Below the pieces are notes generated by a model, which ran no database searches, had not been told where the DNA came from, and worked only from the letters and a program-made list of their open reading frames with translations. DNA of 64,000 bases from an uncultured Elusimicrobia bacterium (GTDB lineage: Bacteria; Elusimicrobiota; Elusimicrobia; 2-01-FULL-59-12): the NCBI GenBank assembly GCA_963702895.1, contig OY969767.1, positions 2,304,001 through 2,368,000 on the forward strand, in the 5' to 3' direction. Below, in pieces: positions 40,416 to 53,514 of the stretch. A program made the position numbers and the translations under genes. Each line of letters begins with the position of its first letter. Within the stretch, counting starts at the first letter, position 1.

Positions 40416-42185
40416 TTATTCTCCGGAGGTTGCCACCGAAAACACCTCTTCGAGCGTCGTGACGCCCAGGGTGACTTTCATCAGACCATCCTGGAAGAGG
40501 CCGCGCATGCCGCCCTTGAGCCCGAGTTCACGAAGGGGGCCCGCCGCCACCTCCGTCAAACAGAGAGCCCGTATTTCGTTATTGACCACGAGCAGCTCAT
40601 GCAGAGCCGCTCTCCCTTTATAGCCAGTCAGATTGCATGTGCCGCATCCCCTCCCTTTAAAAAACGTAGCTTTGGAAATATCGATTTTATTGTCCTCAAA
40701 GACTTTCAACATTTCGGGGGGGGCCTTCAGGGGCTCCTTGCAGTCTTTGCAAACGCGCCGCACGAGGCGCTGCGCGAGCACCGCCTCGATGGCGGAGGCG
40801 ACCAAAAAGTTGGGAACACCCATCTCATGAAGCCGCGCCACGGCGCTTGGCGCATCATTGGTGTGAATCGTGGAAAAGACGAGGTGGCCGGTCATGGCCG
40901 CCTCCATGGCGATCTGCGCTGTCTCTTTGTCTCGAATTTCACCGACCATCACGATATCAGGGTCTTGTCTCAAAAACGCACGCAGGGCGATGGCAAAATC
41001 AAAACCAATTTCTTGATTAACGTTGACCTGCACAATTCCCGGCAAGTTATATTCGACCGGGTTTTCCGCCGTGAGGATTTTCATGTCCGGCGTATTGATG
41101 GAGTTGAGCGCCGCGTAGAGCGTCGTGGATTTGCCGGACCCGGTGGGACCGCACACCAGGACCAGCCCATAGGGCCTCTGCAGGATTTCCTTGAAGCGGT
41201 TCAACGTATCGGGGAGGAACCCCATCTTGCCCATGTCCACCTGGATGGAGCTGCGATCAAGGACGCGCATGACGCAGGCTTCTCCAAAAACGGTGGGGAC
41301 CATGTTGACTCGAAATTCAATAGGATTTCCTCTGGCCGTGACCTGGATGCGACCGTCCTGGGGTTTGCGCCTTTCCGTAATGTCCATCTGGTTGGTCATG
41401 ATCTTGATTTTCGCGATCAGTGCATTGCGATAGGGGTAGGGGAGCGCGAACGGCGCCTCTCGCAGGGACCCGTCAATGCGATACCGAAGGACAAGCTTCT
41501 TCTCAAAGGGTTCGATGTGAATGTCGGAGGCCTTCTGCTGCAGCGCGCCCAAGATAATCGCGTTGACGAGCTTCTCGACCTCCGGCGCGTCTGCGGAGAC
41601 TTCTGCGACATCCGCGAGTTCCTCTTGGATGCCGCCGACGGTCAGCTCATCCGAACCCGATCCGCTTGCGCCTGCAGCGACGCCCTTAATAATGTCCTCG
41701 ACACTGACATCCGCGGTGGCCGCCGAGGTCGAGACGCCATACGCCTTGTCCAAAAGAGCTCCAATGTCGTCCGGGAGGGCCAAATACGGCTGGACCTCAA
41801 AGCCGGTCCTGAGCTGGATGTCCTCGACGGCAAAGAAATCGCGGGGATCCACCATGGCCACAAAAAGGACATTTTCTTCCTTGGCAAAAGGGGTCGCCTT
41901 GTGGCGCCTGGCGGTCGCCTCGGGAATGACTTTGACCACATCCAAATCGACCTCGATATCCGTGAGATTGACCGCCTTGATGCGCCATTCCTCGGAGAGC
42001 GCCTTGAGGACAACCGTCTTATCCAGTATTTTTCGTTTCACCACCGCCTGCTGAAGGGTGATATCGCCTTTGCGACACTCTTCCACCGCCGGCTGAAGCT
42101 GGCTTTCTGTCACGAGCTTCCGACTGAGGAGGATCTCGATGACGCCTTTCGGGTTCGAGGCGCCTTTGGGAGAGGGCAGAGACAT
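40416..42185 (-). CDS. GspE/PilB-family secretion or type IV pilus assembly ATPase
   Basis: ASDIHIEP, GPTGSGKST, LRQDPD..GEIRD, TGHLVFST, tetracysteine motif. Confidence 0.95.
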   Translation of the reverse strand: MSLPSPKGASNPKGVIEILLSRKLVTESQLQPAVEECRKGDITLQQAVVKRKILDKTVVLKALSEEWRIKAVNLTDIEVDLDVVKVIPEATARRHKATPFAKEENVLFVAMVDPRDFFAVEDIQLRTGFEVQPYLALPDDIGALLDKAYGVSTSAATADVSVEDIIKGVAAGASGSGSDELTVGGIQEELADVAEVSADAPEVEKLVNAIILGALQQKASDIHIEPFEKKLVLRYRIDGSLREAPFALPYPYRNALIAKIKIMTNQMDITERRKPQDGRIQVTARGNPIEFRVNMVPTVFGEACVMRVLDRSSIQVDMGKMGFLPDTLNRFKEILQRPYGLVLVCGPTGSGKSTTLYAALNSINTPDMKILTAENPVEYNLPGIVQVNVNQEIGFDFAIALRAFLRQDPDIVMVGEIRDKETAQIAMEAAMTGHLVFSTIHTNDAPSAVARLHEMGVPNFLVASAIEAVLAQRLVRRVCKDCKEPLKAPPEMLKVFEDNKIDISKATFFKGRGCGTCNLTGYKGRAALHELLVVNNEIRALCLTEVAAGPLRELGLKGGMRGLFQDGLMKVTLGVTTLEEVFSVATSGE

Positions 42186-42186
42186 C

Positions 42187-42543
42187 TTAATTCACGTCCT
42201 TCATTTCAATTCGGTCGCCCACTCGGGTGCCTGTGCGCGCGAGGCTTCCTTCCGGCAACTCGAGGGCTCCCGCGCTCCTCCAGTAGACGCGGGAGAGCCG
42301 CCAGGGACGGTGCGTTTGTCCTCCTAGCACGGTCCCTTGCCGGTCTAAAAACAACACATCGATGGCATAACGCATGAGGAAGGTATGGACGGATTTACAC
42401 GGACTTACATACATCCCTTCGCCTTCACCCAGCGATGGGGTGGACAAGAGACCGATCGCGCGCTCCAGAAGAGAAGTCGCGACACGTATGTTCCGCCCAA
42501 GATCGACATTCCGGGTGGCATTCCGAACGGAGATATGCCTCAT
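42187..42543 (-). CDS. DUF192 family protein
   Basis: RAIGL, VHTFLMRYAIDVLFLD, ALELPEG. Confidence 0.85.
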   Translation of the reverse strand: MRHISVRNATRNVDLGRNIRVATSLLERAIGLLSTPSLGEGEGMYVSPCKSVHTFLMRYAIDVLFLDRQGTVLGGQTHRPWRLSRVYWRSAGALELPEGSLARTGTRVGDRIEMKDVN

Positions 42544-45780: not shown

Positions 45781-46612
45781 ATTGGACGTAAGCCTGAGCG
45801 ACGGCGCAGGCGAGCGCCCGCACGCGCGCGATATAAGTGACACGCTCTGAAACGGAGATGGCCCCGCGCGCGTCGAGCAAATTAAACGTATGGGAGCATT
45901 TCATGACCTGCTCATAGGCAGGCTTCACAAGACCCGCAGCCAGCAGGCGTTTGGACTCCCGCTCATAATTCGTAAAGCTCTGGCGCAGGAGGTCCACATC
46001 CGCCAGCTCAAAGTTGTATTTCGAAAACTGTTTTTCATCTTCCAGGTGCATTTCCCCATAGGTGGTTTTGGCCGTCCAGAGCACGTCAAAGACGTTATTT
46101 TTCTTTTGGGAGTACATGGCGAGGCGCTCCAGGCCATAGGTGAGCTCCACTGAAATCGGGTCAAGCTTGACTCCCCCGATTTCTTGAAAATAGGTGAACT
46201 GCGTGATCTCCATGCCGTCCAGCCAAACCTCCCAGCCCAACCCCCAGGCGCCCAGTGTCGGAGATTCCCAGTCGTCTTCCACAAAGCGGATGTCGTGCTG
46301 TTTGGGGTCGATGCCGATCGCCCGCAAAGAGGCCAGGTAGAGCGCCTGGACATTTGAAGGAGAGGGCTTCAGGATCACCTGGTACTGGTAATAATGCTGG
46401 AGGCGATTAGGGTTGTCGCCATAACGGCCATCGGTGGGACGCCGGCTGGGCTCGACATAGGCCACTTTCCAGGGTTTGGGGGTCAGGCACTCGAGGAACG
46501 TCGCGGGGTTGAAGGTCCCGGCGCCTTTTTCGATGTCGTAAGGCTGCCACAGAAGGCATCCCTGCTTCGCCCAGTATTTATGAAGGGTCAGGATGATGTC
46601 TTGAAAGGTCAC
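45737..46612 (-). CDS. glyQ: Glycine--tRNA ligase alpha subunit
   Basis: [45 protein letters not shown] start. Confidence 0.97.
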
Positions 46613-46716
46613 CCCACCACCTCTTTTCCAACCCTTGATCGCGCAAGCGAGCAAGGCCCGGTCGCGACGGCGACCGGGATTCGCTCCCGCGAATGTTGCA
46701 AAAGAGGTGGTGGGGT
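46611..46716. other. Perfect four-way junction structure in the recO-glyQ spacer
   Basis: 21/22-bp closing stem plus three contiguous hairpins (46633-46656, 46657-46678, 46679-46694). Confidence 0.8.
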
Positions 46717-47375
46717 CATATTTCAACTCCTGCCAGCTGTCTAAAACGGTTCACGTGCAAAGGTCGGGCCAGATGATCCGTGACGGTTGCCCCGGCCAGA
46801 TGCTCTACGGCCGTGAGCGCGGGGCCCTTCCAATTTTCCCGGGCCAGCACTTCCAAGGGAGCGTTTTTGAGCGCGCCCGCCCAGATCGGGTGCTTTTCCT
46901 CCAAATCCATCCAGGAGTCCCGGTGATCTAAACCCAGTCCCGCCGCCGCCAGAAACCGTACCGCAAAGGCCAGGCGCAGAACCCCCAGATAAGGCGCCGT
47001 CGTCAAAGCGTTCAATGTCTCTTTCAAGAGCGCAAACTTATCCGGACTGGGCTGTTCTTCGGGGGTGAGCCGCTGGACCACTTCGCAGACCCAGGACGCC
47101 GCCGTCGTGCGCGCCACTTCCGTACGAAGAGCGGGGTAGCTGGAGACCATGCGGCCCCCGGTGATTTTCCCCCACCCTCGTCCAGGCACAAGATAAAGCG
47201 CGAGATCGCTTTCCACAAAAGGCTCTGTGAGCGCAGAGAACTTGGCGGTGGCGCGCGCAGCACTGGTCGCCTTGGCCGTCAAGCGGCCCATTTCACGCGT
47301 AAAAAGCCCGACGATTTTATCCGCCTCGCGACTTCGCCGGGACCACAACACGACCGCACGCACATTATGAATCAT
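46716..47375 (-). CDS. recO: DNA repair protein RecO
   Basis: [18 protein letters not shown] motifs; canonical position before glyQ; no Zn-finger cysteines. Confidence 0.88.
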
Positions 47376-47385
47376 ACTCTTGAGA

Positions 47386-47643
47386 GAGAGTGTGCCATAT
47401 CTGGCCCTTGCCCTTCCAGCCCATCCAGCCAATCCCCGATTGACTTCCAGAAAGTTATGCGCCACGCTCATGCCTGTGAATCGCATTTCCCTTAGCTTTG
47501 TCTTCGGTTTAGGGATCGTTTTTCAGGACGGTCTTGATCGGATGAATGATCGTTTCGGCTGGCTCCCCTCGTCGGCCATGGCAAACCTCAGCTTCATTGC
47601 TCTGCAGTATGTCTTTCTTCTCATCTCAGGCTTCAACAGACTC
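47386..47643 (-). pseudogene. Possible internally deleted IS1182/IS5-like remnant
   Basis: Weak ends GAGTCTGTTGAA / GAGAGTGTGCCA; fragment ..SVAHNFL resembles a transposase C-terminus; no TSD. Confidence 0.25.
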
Positions 47644-47696: not shown

Positions 47697-47900
47697 AAGC
47701 GATATTCCCCTACCAAAACGACACCCGTCGATTGCGCGAACGGGGGTGTTCGGGGGATGTTCCTAGGTTGGTCGAAGGGCCTATTCAAGACAACAAAAGA
47801 CCCATATCTTTTTGGCCAAAAGGCATCTGGAAAGCGTCTCATAATCCGCCTAAAATTAAGTACCTCGAACGCGCGCGCATTACGCGCGTTCGATGTATCT

Positions 47901-50900
47901 ATGCAAAGATCGCTCCTACAGTTTGTGGCCCTGGTGCTCGTTCAGTGTTTCCTGCTCGATCCTGCCTTGGCGCAGGTCTCGCCTCTAACTCCGGGCGTCT
48001 CACTGTCCATGCCCCAAGAGCTTTCGGTGATTGAGCACCAAGCGATTACCGCGCCCTTTGCCTTTTTTTTCCGTCGAAATAGGCTCAACGAACCAGCGGC
48101 TATCTCGCTCGTGGCTCAATTTCGAACCTACTGCGCGTCCGCCGTTACGCGAATTCGTCATTCTCCGAAACCGCGGACATCAGCTCCAGCGGAAGATCCT
48201 AGAGCCCGCCTGCATACGGCGTTTGACACGCAGGACGAAGCGCTCTTTAAGCAGGCGCGGCGGGATTTCGACGAGCGGGGAGAGGGGCAATTGACGGTTT
48301 TTTCACTCCACCCGATTACCACCTGGGGAGGCTCCTCGGTTTTGACCGGAGCCGCCCTTAAGGATCAGCTGGAATCGATTTGCCAGCTCATTCCGGCCAC
48401 CAATCCATACAACCGCTTGCTGCTGCGTAAACTCCTGATCTCCATTCAGTTCTGGTCCGGCACCTTTGGGGGTCCGAAAAACGTGGGCGGGTTTATCATT
48501 CAGAAGGGCCAGTTCATGAACTCCAACGGGATGAACGAAGAGTCTCTGCGCCTTACGGTGCTCGGACCGATCCATCGATTTGTGCCGATTTATTTGTTTA
48601 GCGGCGGAAACAGCGGGTATCAGCCGGCTTTTCAATCCCACTCTTCAGGGATTGAAGTTATCATCCCCCTGGCCCACGATATTCGCGGGTCCAGGCCTCC
48701 GGACTGGGGCGCCGACGTGATCGACGTGTTCAGCGGCATCGGCGGATCGCGCAACCGGGTCGAGAGAATTTCCCTCCCCGATGGCCGGACCGCGATCCGG
48801 AAGACGACTCGGCTGGACGAAGAAGTGGTCCCTTCGAAACTCCGTGATGAAATCTCCTACATCCAACGGCTGCGGGCGGAAGGACTGACCACCCTGCCGG
48901 AGATCTACAGCGTCTCAGAATCCGAAGGCACGCTCAGTGTCGTGATGGAGGACTTTGAGCCAGAGGGATATTTTTCGGTCACCAACCTCTCCTACTTGAA
49001 TTCTGATCTGGAAACGCTCGCGATTTCAAGTTTGGCAATTTGGGATTTCGGGATGCATGTGTACAGAAGTCTATTGGACCCGCTCTATCGCCAGAACGTC
49101 GGCGAAACCCCGAGCGACTTTGTCGAGCGCTATCACCTTCGCAAGATTGATGAGCGCCTCGCGCAGGCTAGACAAAAAGCGCCAGTCCTGGACGAAATGA
49201 TCGATGCGCCGGTCGTCAGGGCACCGGGTATGTCGGGGGAAGAAGCCTATCTTCCCGGGTGGGCCGCGCTGCGCCCCTTTCTTGTCGCGATCGCGGGCAC
49301 CGGGCTATTGTCCCCGCCTTATCTTGCGCGGGATCATGGCGATCTCAATTTCGGTGATATCCTGATGGATCCTCTGGAGTATGCCCGCGATGGGAAATTC
49401 CAAACCTTTCGGCTGATCGATCCGAAGTATTACCCCGAAGGCAATGACTATCTTTACGATTTTGCCAAGCTCCTGCATCACTTTGTGTCACTATATGATC
49501 TCGGCCGATTTGATCCGGTTTTTGAGATGCGGGCCATGAACCGCGGGCAGTCAGGGCGCGTCCCTCATTTTAGGATCGAAGTGGATGACGAGGGCTCCAT
49601 GGTTCCCTTCCGCCTGAGCATGGAAATGCGCCAGCACTTTATTCGCTGGCTCGAGGGATCGCCTGACTTCTTTGGGTTGGAGCAGGGCGCCGACTGGAAA
49701 ATTCGTCTCCTGTTCACGGTCGGCCTTCAAATGGCAGGTTTGCCTCCTTTTCACCTGCGGCATAACGGCATGGAATCGCCTGCACGAACGTTCTATCTGA
49801 TCTCGCTCGCGTTCCTTTATCCGCTGGTCGATCTCATCCTGACGGGCGACTATGATCAGACCGTGCTGCGAAAGATCGACCCGGCCATCCGCTCCGCGTG
49901 GGTTCAACTGAAGATGCAGGTGGAAGAGGCCCGTGATGCGGATACACTAGACGATATCTTATCCTCCAAAAACCCGGTCCCCGCGCTGCGGGAGTTTCTG
50001 TCGAAACAGCGCCGCGCTCCCATGTTCATGCCGGCCTATCTGGGCCGCCTGGCGAGAGCTCTCTCGCCTGAACAGGTCGATGTTTTGAGCCGCTGTCTGT
50101 TCGAAATCGTGACCGGTCAATCACCAAGCGATTATGCCGCCGCCCTACCCGCTCCAGGAACGAGGCCCGCGAACCAATCGGTCTCGGAGGAGGGACTTCC
50201 CCGCATCGCCACGTTGACCCCCAATCCCGTCCTTGTCCTAACCGTTGATTTCAATCATTTCCCAGGCTCCGGTGCGTCGCGCGATACCAGGCCCATACTT
50301 CTTGAACCCAGCGGCAAAGCCCTCAATATGTCTGTGGAATTACACCAATGGGGCGTATGCCCGATAACTGTGGCGCCCGTTGGAGGGGCCATGGGTCAGA
50401 TCATCAGGACGCTCCTGGAATTCCAAGGGGTCGATACACGGGGGCTTGTACCGATTGAGGGCGAATCCCGGCTTTACCTGATCTTAGAGGCAAGCCCCGG
50501 AAATCATGTTGAGATCTTCGGAGCAGGGCCTCGCGTTCCCTCGGAGGTGCTCCAGCAGATGCGGGAGACACTCTGGGAATCCTTACAGCCGGGCGATTTC
50601 CTTTTGCTGGGAGGAAGCCTACCGAAGGGCGCTCCCGACGACTATTATGCGACGGTGATCCAGGAAGCCAAAGCGCGTGGCATAAAGACCTATCTCGATA
50701 CGCGGGGGGCGGCCCTGCGGCCCGCGATCGAGGCCGCGCCCCATTTTATCGGCGTCAACCTCCTTGAGTTTTCAAGCTACCTGGGTCATCCCTTGACGTC
50801 CTTGGAGGAAAACAAAGAGGAAATTCTTGCCGCGCTCAAACGGCTGGTGGCCCGCGGTACGGATATCGTGGTCATCAGTCATGAAAGCGAGGGGATGATC

Positions 50901-52106
50901 ATGGCCACACGGGACGGCGCCTGGATCGCTCATCCGCCCGCGGTGACGCTCGTTTCTCACACCGGAGCGGGGGACACTATTAAGGTCGCTTTCAGCTACA
51001 GTGAGCGCCAGGGGGCCACGATCCTTGACGCCTTGCGGCTAGCTGCGGCCGCCAGCGCCATCTCTGTGACGAAGCCCGGGACGGGCCTTGCCGGCCTGGA
51101 AGAAGCCCAGCAGAAGCTGGGCGAGGTGACGATCGAAGCCCTTGAACAGGGACCCCCAAGTAAACGGGTGGCGATCATCGGCGCCTCCGCGTTCCTGGGA
51201 AAGAAGATCGATGCGACACTGCGCCGTCGGGGTATGGACGTTATCGGCACCGCATTTACAAAGCGAGGGGATGTTCAACTCGATGTGACGCAAGCCGCTG
51301 ATGTAAAGGCATTCCTGGACAAGGAACAACCCGATGTCGTGATTTATGTGGCCGGAGAGACTGATCCTGAAAAAGCCGAGGCCAATCGGCAAAGGGCACA
51401 CCTGCTCAACGCCGGAGCGCTCGATCACTTTTCCAATTTTAAAGGACAGTTTATTTACATCTCTTCCAATTACATCTTTGATGGGATAAACCCGCCCTAT
51501 GCCGCGGGAGATCCGCCTCGTCCTCTGAATATTTACGGGGAAACAAAATGGGAAGGTGAACAAGCTGCTCAGCGGCTATTTCCGGGCCGCTGCACCATTG
51601 TCCGATCGGATTTCCTTTATGGCCATAATGATGCCTCAGACAAACAAACGTTTATCCACCAGCTCGTCGCCGCTTTTCAGGAAGGCCGCCCGGTGGAGAC
51701 GGACAACGTCCAGGTCCGATCGCCGGTCCTGATTGACGATGTCTCCCGTGTGGTAGCGGATGCCATCGAAGAAGAGCGTTTAGGAGTGATCCAGGTCAGT
51801 GGTCCCGACTCCTTGACCAAATTCCAAATGGCCCAAATCGTCCGCGTGGTTTTTGATCGCCTTTACCCGCACGCCAAAGCCAGCACGATTTCCGATGGCG
51901 CTTCGGTCGATCTAACGCATCGTCCCCGCGATGCCAGAATGACGACCTCCTGGGCTTCCACGTCGTTTCGAGAAGCGCTTGAAACTTTGATCCCGCTCAT
52001 CGCCGGGGGCATCGCGGGAGGCCCAACGACGGACGCTCTCCTTGAGATCCTCGACCACCGCGGCGATGCCCCGCCGGGCCATGCCAAGCTCAGCCGAGCT
52101 GCCTGA
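47901..52106 (+). CDS. Signal-peptide-bearing multi-enzyme fusion: APH/choline-kinase-like + PfkB (1-phosphofructokinase-like) + RmlD-like SDR
   Basis: MQRSLLQFVALVLVQCFLLDPALA; HGDL, LIDP, YDFAKL; TLTPNP, SGKALN, GAGD; GASAFLG, YISSNYIFDG, YGETK. Confidence 0.82.
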   Translation: MQRSLLQFVALVLVQCFLLDPALAQVSPLTPGVSLSMPQELSVIEHQAITAPFAFFFRRNRLNEPAAISLVAQFRTYCASAVTRIRHSPKPRTSAPAEDPRARLHTAFDTQDEALFKQARRDFDERGEGQLTVFSLHPITTWGGSSVLTGAALKDQLESICQLIPATNPYNRLLLRKLLISIQFWSGTFGGPKNVGGFIIQKGQFMNSNGMNEESLRLTVLGPIHRFVPIYLFSGGNSGYQPAFQSHSSGIEVIIPLAHDIRGSRPPDWGADVIDVFSGIGGSRNRVERISLPDGRTAIRKTTRLDEEVVPSKLRDEISYIQRLRAEGLTTLPEIYSVSESEGTLSVVMEDFEPEGYFSVTNLSYLNSDLETLAISSLAIWDFGMHVYRSLLDPLYRQNVGETPSDFVERYHLRKIDERLAQARQKAPVLDEMIDAPVVRAPGMSGEEAYLPGWAALRPFLVAIAGTGLLSPPYLARDHGDLNFGDILMDPLEYARDGKFQTFRLIDPKYYPEGNDYLYDFAKLLHHFVSLYDLGRFDPVFEMRAMNRGQSGRVPHFRIEVDDEGSMVPFRLSMEMRQHFIRWLEGSPDFFGLEQGADWKIRLLFTVGLQMAGLPPFHLRHNGMESPARTFYLISLAFLYPLVDLILTGDYDQTVLRKIDPAIRSAWVQLKMQVEEARDADTLDDILSSKNPVPALREFLSKQRRAPMFMPAYLGRLARALSPEQVDVLSRCLFEIVTGQSPSDYAAALPAPGTRPANQSVSEEGLPRIATLTPNPVLVLTVDFNHFPGSGASRDTRPILLEPSGKALNMSVELHQWGVCPITVAPVGGAMGQIIRTLLEFQGVDTRGLVPIEGESRLYLILEASPGNHVEIFGAGPRVPSEVLQQMRETLWESLQPGDFLLLGGSLPKGAPDDYYATVIQEAKARGIKTYLDTRGAALRPAIEAAPHFIGVNLLEFSSYLGHPLTSLEENKEEILAALKRLVARGTDIVVISHESEGMIMATRDGAWIAHPPAVTLVSHTGAGDTIKVAFSYSERQGATILDALRLAAAASAISVTKPGTGLAGLEEAQQKLGEVTIEALEQGPPSKRVAIIGASAFLGKKIDATLRRRGMDVIGTAFTKRGDVQLDVTQAADVKAFLDKEQPDVVIYVAGETDPEKAEANRQRAHLLNAGALDHFSNFKGQFIYISSNYIFDGINPPYAAGDPPRPLNIYGETKWEGEQAAQRLFPGRCTIVRSDFLYGHNDASDKQTFIHQLVAAFQEGRPVETDNVQVRSPVLIDDVSRVVADAIEEERLGVIQVSGPDSLTKFQMAQIVRVVFDRLYPHAKASTISDGASVDLTHRPRDARMTTSWASTSFREALETLIPLIAGGIAGGPTTDALLEILDHRGDAPPGHAKLSRAA

Positions 52107-52155: not shown

Positions 52156-53514
52156 TTAGTTGCCAGCGTCCCCTAGGGTGTATTTGCTGACGAAAGCTTC
52201 GGAGAGTTTGTGGCGGCGGAGCTTGCGGACTGAGATTTGGAGCCCTTCTGCGCGCAGGGTTTCACCCTTGGCGATGAGGCGCCCCATGATTTGGTTGCAC
52301 CAATCGGCCAGACGAAGGTTTTTGGGGGCAGCAAAGGTGGGAGACCAAGGCACTCCGAGGCGTGAAGCCACGGCGGTGATCGGCACCCCTCCGCCCATAA
52401 TCCAGCCCCCCGAGGTGGGATGGGTATGCAGGGGCAGCGAGTCCTCTTCGTCCTCAATATCGCCGACCAGCTCTTCGATAATATCCTCAAGCGTCACCAG
52501 GCCCAGCACCTTTTCGTCTTCGCTGATGACCAGTGCGATATGGAGTTTTTCCCGCATCATCTGCTCGAGCACCTGCGAGATGGGCAGGTCGGCCCGTAGG
52601 CGCTTGATGGGGCGGGCAATCCCCTGGACCGTGGGGGTCGCGGCATGCATTTTAAGAGCGCTGACCAAATCTTTGAAGGTGATGTAGCCTTCAATCGTCT
52701 GGGCGTCATTTTCGACTGAGCAAATGGGGAAGCGCGTGTGAAGATCCATGTGCGCTCGGAGAAGGCCCTCGGTTAAACTGAGATGGGATGGCACCATGGA
52801 GATTTCCGACGCAGGGATGGTGATGGCTTTGATGGGGCGGCGTGAGAGCTGGGCGGCCGCGAGCACAATTTTCTCCTCTTGAGCGCCCATGAGCCGCTGC
52901 GTCCTGGCCAGGGACGCCGCCGCCTCCAGTTCATGGAGGCCATGGAGATCGCCAAGCTCGCGTTCCTTCGCCTTAAAGAAAAATCGTTCCAGTCTCAGGA
53001 AGAATTTGACGCACGCCTCGAAGAGATACGCGACAGGCCAAATCGCCCATGCCACGACACGCATGACGGGCGCAAGGCGCAAACAGACCCATTCCCTATT
53101 TTCCACGGCGAACACCTTCGGGATGAGCTCTGCGAAGATGATGGTGAACGCGCTCAAGGGAATAACAATGCCGACAATCGCGACCGCGCGGGCCAGGCCA
53201 TGGGAAAAGCCTAAAGCCTCCTTGAGCCATGGCGCGACCACCTCCTGGACACCCGCCCCTCCTGTGGCGGCGGCAACAGCCCCCGCCACGGTAATCCCAA
53301 TCTGGATCACCGCGAGGCTCGCCTCGAAACGTTCTTTCATGTAGAGCGCCGACGCTGCGCCGGCTCGCTTGTGGTTGGCCAGCACTTGAAGACGGGCCGT
53401 GGAAATAGACGCCAGGGCCATCTCAAAGGCGGCGAGCAGCGCATTGAGAGCGAGCATCGCCCCGATCACGAGGACTTCGTAGCTGTAATTCATGAAGGGT
53501 GTTTCGCCTCCCAT
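52156..53514 (-). CDS. Hemolysin-family CNNM/CBS/CorC domain protein
   Basis: EMALAS, ELIPK, TRFP, GLVTLEDIIEELVGDIEDE. Confidence 0.92.
   Translation of the reverse strand: MGGETPFMNYSYEVLVIGAMLALNALLAAFEMALASISTARLQVLANHKRAGAASALYMKERFEASLAVIQIGITVAGAVAAATGGAGVQEVVAPWLKEALGFSHGLARAVAIVGIVIPLSAFTIIFAELIPKVFAVENREWVCLRLAPVMRVVAWAIWPVAYLFEACVKFFLRLERFFFKAKERELGDLHGLHELEAAASLARTQRLMGAQEEKIVLAAAQLSRRPIKAITIPASEISMVPSHLSLTEGLLRAHMDLHTRFPICSVENDAQTIEGYITFKDLVSALKMHAATPTVQGIARPIKRLRADLPISQVLEQMMREKLHIALVISEDEKVLGLVTLEDIIEELVGDIEDEEDSLPLHTHPTSGGWIMGGGVPITAVASRLGVPWSPTFAAPKNLRLADWCNQIMGRLIAKGETLRAEGLQISVRKLRRHKLSEAFVSKYTLGDAGN

Follow-up and report, generated by a model that had tools for sequence, protein, structure and literature searches.

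The open reading frame (ORF) at positions 47901–52106 of the window, the 64,000-nt stretch of contig OY969767.1 from an uncultured Elusimicrobia bacterium that was analyzed, encodes on the plus strand a protein of 1,401 aa without an internal stop, in which a signal-peptide-like leader precedes a kinase-like domain, a PfkB kinase and an RmlD-like short-chain dehydrogenase/reductase (SDR). This gene is best read as belonging to a class of exported, polymorphic cargo proteins in which domains are swapped within a fixed frame. The frame consists of a shared upstream element, a conserved leader and a C-terminal hydrophobic-x-x-[ASQ]-Ala; the enzyme or regulator domains inside it seem to be drawn from the same pool as those of the giant proteins in related phyla. 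The genome is a single contig of 2.72 Mb (98% complete); positions given below as "genome" refer to it and all others to the window.

Leader and tail are coupled as one frame. In a clean test, a profile was grown from the first 60 residues of the protein, with tails hidden, and run against all 1,520 ORFs of at least 300 aa in this genome, restricted to their first 200 residues. It recovered 12 large ORFs, including the 1,401-aa one, and all 12 end in Ala-Ala or Ser-Ala (background, 62 of 1,520; hypergeometric 7e-18, which is overstated because the paralogues are related); an earlier profile, seeded with ORFs chosen by their tails, was circular. A hydrophobic residue occupies position −5 in 12 of 12, compared with 6 of the 34 other distinct [AS]A endings, and a frame of 12,935 codons in the same genome bears the same leader and tail. 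Two irregular members were also encountered. At genome 1604215–1608966, a leader-and-tail gene with two in-frame stops (TAA and TGA), the pieces of which carry URO-D and HATPase_c, is probably a pseudogene; at genome 1409024–1409125, the leader occupies a frame of its own (69 codons) immediately ahead of a tail-bearing ORF of 2,464 codons, a split due to a frameshift or assembly error at the gene start.

Beyond this genome, the leader was found in nine of the 10 other genomes of the taxonomic family (3–30 copies each); the 190 remaining genomes of the class yielded no match (51-sequence profile, E ≤ 1e-4). Weak matches outside family f1 (14 genomes, E 3e-5 to 9e-3) were discarded, as they were gone with the larger profile in a re-search of the class only. 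From the relatives, the 40 top-listed regions without contig-edge matches or matches below 100 aa provided 47 leader ORFs (11 open, 36 closed); 24 of the 36 closed ORFs end in [AS]A, and 31 have small residues at both of the last two positions. Among 1.84 billion representatives scanned, 431 matched the leader, and 139 of the 150 listed come from outside this genome (a few duplicate proteins of the relatives' sample). Among these, an [AS]A ending is present in 36 of 48 representatives of at least 300 aa vs. 1 of 84 below 200 aa, the latter of which we take for fragments. Position −3 of the tails is mostly Arg or Ala, and Ser-Ala, Ala-Ser and Ser-Ser are common among the relatives' endings. The key prediction of a preliminary description of this DNA, that the same leader and tail would recur on different cargoes, therefore holds across genome and family, and its concern that the leader might be unique to one gene is dispelled by the 12 ORFs here and the nine other family genomes.

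The leader logo, built from 138 matches that the leader profile itself had selected, is dominated by Arg (132), Leu (134), Pro (115), Cys (126) and the Ala at −1 (105). The n-region Arg is nearly invariant, the predicted cut site is of the canonical A-x-A type, and conservation is far tighter than in a generic signal peptide. The Cys was rejected as a lipoprotein signal, given that Pro precedes it and the hydrophobic core runs on. Among the 150 representatives given, 138 leaders could be registered, and in 117 of these the family start Met lies 19 residues before a conserved Asp, as it does in the 1,401-aa protein. Because this spacing is kept at 47901, that codon is taken as the start rather than a further in-frame ATG upstream at 47757; it also speaks against a true start downstream, which the preliminary description had kept in mind. 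That description had correctly reported a chain of 1,401 aa ending in LSRAA. Its Sec-like signal peptide is also predicted here by motif and hydropathy, with cleavage after Ala24 as a prediction; its leader of ~240 aa does not hold as one unit, and divides into a 24-aa signal, a conserved motif of the F-x-x-Q-A-L type that extends to about residue 58, then a basic linker and ~160 residues for which no relative was found. No shorter relative of residues 90–760 was present among 8,000 candidates, and a protein atlas search with residues 90–265 was empty. By hydropathy, the leader is the sole clear hydrophobic span of the protein; a weaker stretch at residue 631 is part of the kinase domain and corresponds in the alignment to helices of relatives that look soluble, and a ten-residue hydrophobic run at residues 48–61 is followed by Arg residues.

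The tail pattern hydrophobic-x-x-[ASQ]-A has a broader distribution than the leader and reaches across the phylum. Several giants of this genome with the same tail open instead with a second head, in which an unannotated domain follows the signal; this head is present in 62 of 201 phylum genomes. Among 20 second-head regions fetched from other families, 13 hold closed ORFs, 12 of which end in hydrophobic-x-x-[AS]-A. A further 20 second-head ORFs, from three families without a Tad ATPase match and one named Omnitrophota genome, comprise six ending in [AS]A, six in Gln-Ala, and eight otherwise (some visibly broken); two more Gln-Ala tails occur in genome G004.

The cargo between leader and tail is unrelated between genes, mostly cytoplasmic in type, and turns over between genomes. 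In this genome, it includes HEAT/TPR, helix-turn-helix (HTH), sigma70-r4, DnaJ, methyltransferase, histidine phosphatase, aldo-keto reductase, receiver, FBPase, TIM, and GHMP kinase domains, and the 12.9-kaa giant also has LysM and SLT. Pfam matches were obtained for 12 of 30 relatives (including adenylate kinase, HTH repeats, PCMT, HAD/methyltransferase, and trypsin) and for 8 of 25 representatives (one GH16). By a simple hydropathy rule, 15 of the 36 closed relatives have no hydrophobic span past the leader, including members with adenylate kinase, HAD/methyltransferase, and HTH cargo. In genome G006 (L098:4831–13134), a member of 2,768 codons strings together nicotinamidase, NAPRTase, nitrilase plus NAD synthase, PRPP-synthase-like, and NUDIX domains; as annotated, this five-enzyme string would amount to a complete NAD salvage pathway preceded by an export-type leader. 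The rewiring of sugar metabolism initially suggested for the 1,401-aa protein is thus too narrow for a family whose cargo includes DNA-binding, methyltransferase, adenylate kinase, and NAD-salvage domains.

The three enzyme domains named in the preliminary description were all placed, the kinase by Pfam only weakly. PfkB matches at residues 802–1063 (7.6e-37) and RmlD_sub_bind at 1089–1357 (3.3e-39); for the kinase (approximately residues 263–660), Pfam gives TCAD9 at 0.019 and EcKL at 0.054. The kinase has three relatives at 25–33% identity among 6,083 candidates, and its ESM feature matches (0.96–0.98) are to clusters with APH on 10–68% of members. A Foldseek search with a kinase model of predicted local distance difference test (pLDDT) 55 returned methylthioribose kinase (E 5e-3) and N-acetylhexosamine kinase (E 0.02), and nothing at E ≤ 0.001. 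The kinase keeps HGD and DP; the loop Asn is replaced by Asp (HGDLNFGD vs. HGDLx[IF][GA]N in its three relatives). The protein also has GVN in place of KPN, and both motif deviations noticed earlier are real. The PfkB domain has an intact catalytic motif, and its nearest solved structures by sequence are fructose-1-phosphate and tagatose-6-phosphate kinases; it falls below the NCBIfam cut-offs (195 vs. 216 bits for 1-PFK; 188 vs. 292 bits for tagatose-6-phosphate kinase), and is FruK/LacC-like in predicted working and outside those families by score. The SDR is closest among solved structures to MAT2B (E 8e-27), then to RmlD (5.5e-19), and is below the rmlD NCBIfam cut-off (131 vs. 224 bits); of the glycine loop, S/T-D-Y and YxxxK motifs, the last is intact, the loop has Ala for the second Gly, and the Asp is changed as well. 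Judged by these motifs, the catalytic cores appear to be retained in all three domains (HGD/DP, GAGD, YxxxK) despite three deviations.

The kinase, PfkB, and SDR were not found together elsewhere in the family genomes or metagenome kinase loci. An origin by capture of an operon is not supported: in the four metagenome loci read, of eight, no PfkB or SDR matches lie beside the kinase. The nearest relative of the SDR (39%) carries an additional 200 residues and looks to be a fragment of something larger, and the nearest metagenome relative of the kinase sits inside a frame of at least 4,309 codons. Because both look like parts of larger proteins, the domains seem to be drawn from a pool common to such giant proteins.

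The family genes probably form a regulon via a shared upstream element. They are preceded by ~46 bp of direct-repeat-like DNA and often by a GC hairpin before the start codon, and 21 of 30 relatives have a −10-like hexamer 62 bases from the element start. A matrix built solely from 45 regions of relatives has 20 sites above 20 bits in this genome (none in one shuffle); 14 of these lie ahead of genes with a leader or second head, and the remainder are mostly upstream of signal-bearing, lipoprotein-like, or PorV-like genes (names by inspection). Upstream of the 1,401-aa gene there is a partial copy (Table 1), with a score for half-site core plus −10 that is reached by 118 real vs. 86 shuffled positions and is non-significant alone. 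A strict hairpin pattern, drawn by eye from the same genes, occurs at three places in the genome, all before family start codons, and at none in one shuffle; a loose pattern was not enriched (22 vs. 17 shuffled). The hairpin also precedes several relatives' genes. Separately, all nine IS256-like transposase genes (name by inspection) lie 86–97 bases from a copy of the element, in either orientation (e.g., genome 91743–93011, 1400593–1401855, and 1731885–1733153), compared with none of five copies of another insertion sequence; the IS256-like element looks site-targeted, riding this regulon.

The gene is a lineage-specific insertion between recO and corC. Its neighbors by NCBIfam (aspS, phoH, HD, ybeY, a CNNM/CorC-family gene, recO, and glyQ) are all on the minus strand, and glyS was called from sequence and position only; the antisense position splitting the phoH-HD-ybeY-corC-recO-glyQS string, as first described, is confirmed for neighbors and strand. 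Nineteen relatives' recO loci were compared with this one (20 of 30 matches): corC adjoins recO in all three congeners and in G004, and other family members have different CBS-type genes beside recO. No orthologue of the 1,401-aa gene was found in the 10 family genomes, with only RmlD-like matches at 24–29%, and genome-wide there are no repeats and no second copy of the inserted DNA. An Rfam scan of the window gave no matches. Elsewhere at the locus, a palindromic repeat at 46609–46719 recurs at many gene starts genome-wide and translates to Y-R-S-x-G-V / T-P-L-L-R-Y runs, and a PilB-like ATPase and a small DUF192-like gene (names by inspection) lie downstream of glyS on the same strand (40416–42543).

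Table 1. Features of the 1,401-aa gene and its immediate surroundings (window coordinates).
Feature	Position	Strand	Basis
recO, left flank of insertion	46716..47486	-	TIGR00613; adjoins corC in relatives
Partial element copy: second half-site, 33-nt spacer, -10-like TAAAAT	47808..47856	+	Spacing as in relatives
GC-rich hairpin just before start codon	47864..47894	+	-20.6 kcal/mol, z -3.3
Conserved leader resembling a signal peptide; signal peptidase I predicted to cut after Ala24	47901..47972	+	Basic n-region, hydrophobic core (Kyte-Doolittle 2.04), D-P-x-x-A
Second conserved motif F-x-[EQ]-[QE]-A-[LIV] past variable linker (here I-E-H-Q-A-I)	47973..48074	+	132/150 representatives; alignment
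Basic/Pro-Ser linker and ~160 residues without relative	48075..48686	+	No match
APH/choline-kinase-like small-molecule kinase domain (predicted)	48687..49880	+	HGD 479, DP 507 as in three relatives
Helical linker, no relatives among fetched proteins	49881..50195	+	Helical in low-confidence single-sequence model of residues 1-770 (pLDDT 36)
PfkB kinase, FruK/LacC (1-phosphofructokinase-like) type	50196..51149	+	Pfam, NCBIfam, nearest structures; G-A-G-D 1022-1025
RmlD/MAT2B-like extended SDR	51150..51998	+	Pfam, NCBIfam, nearest structures; YxxxK 1212-1216
Low-complexity tail ending hydrophobic-x-x-Ala-Ala, and stop	51999..52106	+	Sequence
CNNM/CorC-family gene, right flank of insertion	52156..53514	-	NCBIfam

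In this genome, the giants at 715–808 kb adjoin a Tad cluster that includes PorV- and FlgD-like genes, as is also the case in G004 and G005, and FlgD_ig and Por_Secre_tail matches occur near the Tad cluster as well. The best matches to the Tad neighborhood among 80 named loci are the three Elusimicrobia records, in line with Elusimicrobiota as the probable phylum. The programme was lost once as a block in G007 (95% complete), which has no leaders and no second heads, lacks the Tad/giant block, and has one match to the upstream element vs. three controls (7–12 in the other ten genomes). In G007, the adjacent LuxR gene is followed directly by homologues of 812.8 kb; the junction (C1:28720–29079) is clean, and ~98 kb of the order of this genome, with the Tad cluster and five giants, is absent. 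A Tad ATPase orthologue is present in nine of 11 family genomes, being missing from G007 and G001; nine of the 10 leader-bearing family genomes have it, and the leaderless one does not. As a universal machine, Tad was nonetheless rejected, being phylum-wide neither sufficient nor needed. A SecA-like giant was likewise dismissed as a general dedicated motor (two of 11 family genomes), and a short FtsH paralogue as a marker (five of five genomes tested, including leaderless G007); in this genome, that short second FtsH (AAA + M41, 547 codons) is at 711026–712669, beside the Tad cluster. ClpX, ClpP, and one S41 protease are present, and the genome's own tmRNA tag ends in LALAA. Some ten large proteins that look secreted have a FlgD/type-IX-like domain at the C-terminus (e.g., genome 2186000–2232000), and form a second export class distinct from the tail family.

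For the 1,401-aa protein and its relatives, it is about an even chance that exported cargo with paired sorting signals acts on the cytoplasm or released contents of a partner cell. In the first step, the leader would probably take the chain through Sec and then be cut; because no membrane span follows the leader, the whole chain would leave the cytoplasm. It is somewhat probable that a dedicated receptor outside the cytoplasm would then read the free C-terminal tail, which would serve as a second sorting signal for outer-membrane passage. The third step, to which we give slightly less than an even chance, would be that the cargo acts inside a contacted partner or prey cell or on what such a cell has released, a site suggested because the cargo needs ATP, NAD(P)H, S-adenosylmethionine, or DNA. 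With its two kinases and its reductase, the 1,401-aa protein would then draw off sugar phosphates or nucleotide sugars. The effector delivered into a host or prey cytoplasm that the preliminary description had proposed would correspond to this third step. More speculative, and on balance doubtful, is a two-signal pathway of Elusimicrobiota, with a drifted form in Omnitrophota, in which a co-regulated, rapidly changing set of metabolic and DNA-binding cargo exported by the leader would be threaded C-terminus first into the host or prey cytoplasm; a receptor or AAA+ unfoldase would grip the hydrophobic-x-x-small-Ala end, and the host or prey microbe would be reprogrammed, not lysed.

Several observations weigh against this paired-signal reading. 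The apparent conservation of the leader is inflated by the selection of its matches with the leader profile, and 12 of the 36 closed relatives and 8 of the 20 further second-head ORFs lack an [ASQ]A ending (in both sets some have assembly gaps or look truncated). No Pfam match was obtained for 18 of 30 relatives and 17 of 25 representatives, some cargo is ordinary extracellular (LysM, SLT, GH16, and trypsin), and a few members have a single span at residues 70–135, which would place the cargo back in the producer's own cytoplasm. The upstream element of the 1,401-aa gene is weak and fails the full 46-bp matrix (−13.5 bits). As for machinery, the block co-loss rests on one genome; G001 (73% complete) has 30 leaders and no Tad orthologue was found in it; family f8 has the Tad ATPase in 58 of 58 genomes and no second heads; and in f11 (0/4), f6 (0/2), and f4 (0/1), all rich in second heads, the Tad ATPase was not found at E ≤ 1e-105.

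The tail might instead be an ssrA-like degron, a failsafe by which early-folding, Sec-jamming, or cytoplasmic chains are destroyed by ClpXP or FtsH; this is compatible with export, replaces the second step alone, and is a reasonable if improbable alternative. The resemblance to ClpX degrons pointed out in the preliminary description is real: the tmRNA tag LALAA has the same pattern, ClpX and ClpP are available, and folded Sec substrates that jam the channel are removed by AAA+ proteases (PMC8076867). In the covered part of an Escherichia coli screen, the consensus is [LFYW]-[LAR]-L-A-A, with Arg favored at −4 and the terminal Ala-Ala critical (Beardslee and Schmitz, 10.1101/2024.01.29.576913); it matches −5 and −4 of the tails, which share with such degrons a free Ala-Ala end, a hydrophobic −5, Arg, Leu, or Ala at −4, and an unstructured basic stretch before. 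Unlike those degrons, the tails sit on proteins with an export-type leader, have Arg or Ala rather than Leu at −3, and are commonly spelled Ser-Ala, Ala-Ser, or Ser-Ser, although the screen regards terminal Ala-Ala as critical; the L-S-R-A-A of the 1,401-aa protein fits the ClpXP consensus at −5, −2, and −1 only. The drift to Gln-Ala, in 6 of 20 tails and two in G004, favors a family sorting signal over a plain ClpX degron.

Slightly less probable is that the same signals keep the protein in the periplasm or on the surface of the producer, where it would use leaked metabolites or serve as non-catalytic binding, scaffold, or decoy modules. This would accord with the motif drift in all three domains, with a regulon that includes PorV-like barrels and lipoprotein-like genes (by sequence inspection), and with the preprints, which, in the parts covered, interpret the multi-enzyme giants of Omnitrophota that bear signals as proteins of the cell surface or the extracellular space (West-Roberts et al., 10.1101/2023.11.21.568195; Nielsen and Lui, 10.64898/2026.06.07.730766). 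Yet sigma70-r4, HTH repeats, and an ordered NAD-salvage string would be of little use there, and the 1,401-aa protein has no anchor. That there is no export at all, the leader being a membrane anchor or re-entrant hairpin, the enzymes working in the producer's cytoplasm and the tail setting their turnover, is unlikely, even though it is the simplest fit of cytoplasmic cofactors to a degron-like end and would suit the members with a single span after the leader and the hydrophobic run and Arg past it in the 1,401-aa protein. A basic n-region, acidic c-region, and conserved A-x-A predict an N-in, C-out orientation and cleavage; most members have a short, polar second segment, and complete cargo turnover between congeners would be odd for housekeeping metabolism. 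Misassembly or chance fusion is very improbable: no read or contig obtained bridges the domain junctions (one DNA run, 0.07 of words, gave contigs of 151–262 bases that match parts of the gene and flanks and none across a junction, which is neutral evidence, as is the lack of any listed RNA run) and there is no full-length relative, but the one-contig genome, the unbroken 4.2-kb frame with GC and third-codon-position GC (GC3, 0.65) matching the neighbors, the family frame intact at both ends, and the giant frame around the nearest metagenome kinase all speak against it.

Type IX secretion combines a Sec signal with a C-terminal sorting domain, a beta-sandwich of 70–80 residues. Like type IX cargo, the tail family has an N-terminal Sec signal and a conserved C-terminal feature on unrelated cargo; unlike it, the tail comprises about five residues, located on a helix or in a disordered stretch, and the type IX C-terminal-domain-like proteins of this genome end differently. 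No Pfam match to a type IX C-terminal sorting domain was present at E ≤ 1 in the 1,401-aa protein. RXLR and PEXEL are host-targeting motifs that follow the signal in polymorphic effector repertoires, and resemble the present arrangement of a signal, a short conserved motif, and then fast-changing cargo. Tad-based contact killing (Kil/Tad) has been described in Myxococcus, according to a review (PMC12428579), and here too a Tad cluster is nearby. Unlike in both RXLR/PEXEL and Kil/Tad, the cargo is metabolic rather than a toxin, and no immunity genes were seen, none having been searched for; unlike Kil/Tad, Tad does not track the leader-tail family phylum-wide.

The closest counterparts are multi-enzyme signal-bearing giants of Omnitrophota and Elusimicrobiota, which have been described with function left open (Nielsen and Lui, 10.64898/2026.06.07.730766). 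Within the parts of the preprints covered, giants are defined as at least 10,000 aa, and they (class 1 and SP-only topology) share with the proteins reported here a signal, predicted in the latter, and strings of metabolic or regulatory domains, sequence-unique proteins, Tad/pilus genes alongside, and a proposed link to host-dependent life (West-Roberts et al., 10.1101/2023.11.21.568195; 10.64898/2026.06.07.730766). The protein of the window differs in its 1,401 aa, the lack of membrane spans, and the lack of any SecA-like or C39 domain found, and members of its family are scattered singly into housekeeping operons. The covered parts of the preprints contain no shared leader motif, tail, or upstream element (in the 2026 text, "motif" and "degron" both occur 0 times; 10.64898/2026.06.07.730766), and a search of the literature, outside of which lay preprint supplements and most subscription papers, found no description of a paired leader and tail or of the upstream element. 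The protein class is therefore already in preprints; the leader-tail coupling, the small span-free member, and the upstream element are new here.

These results touch on the question of why these phyla load cytoplasmic enzymes into signal-bearing giants, which a span-free member of 1,401 aa with definable end signals and a shared element makes testable. The upstream element could list the whole repertoire in any family genome, and G007 is a natural comparison strain for tracing the reader of the tail and the regulator. If delivery into partner cells is true, the family would represent a new effector route between uncultured microbes.

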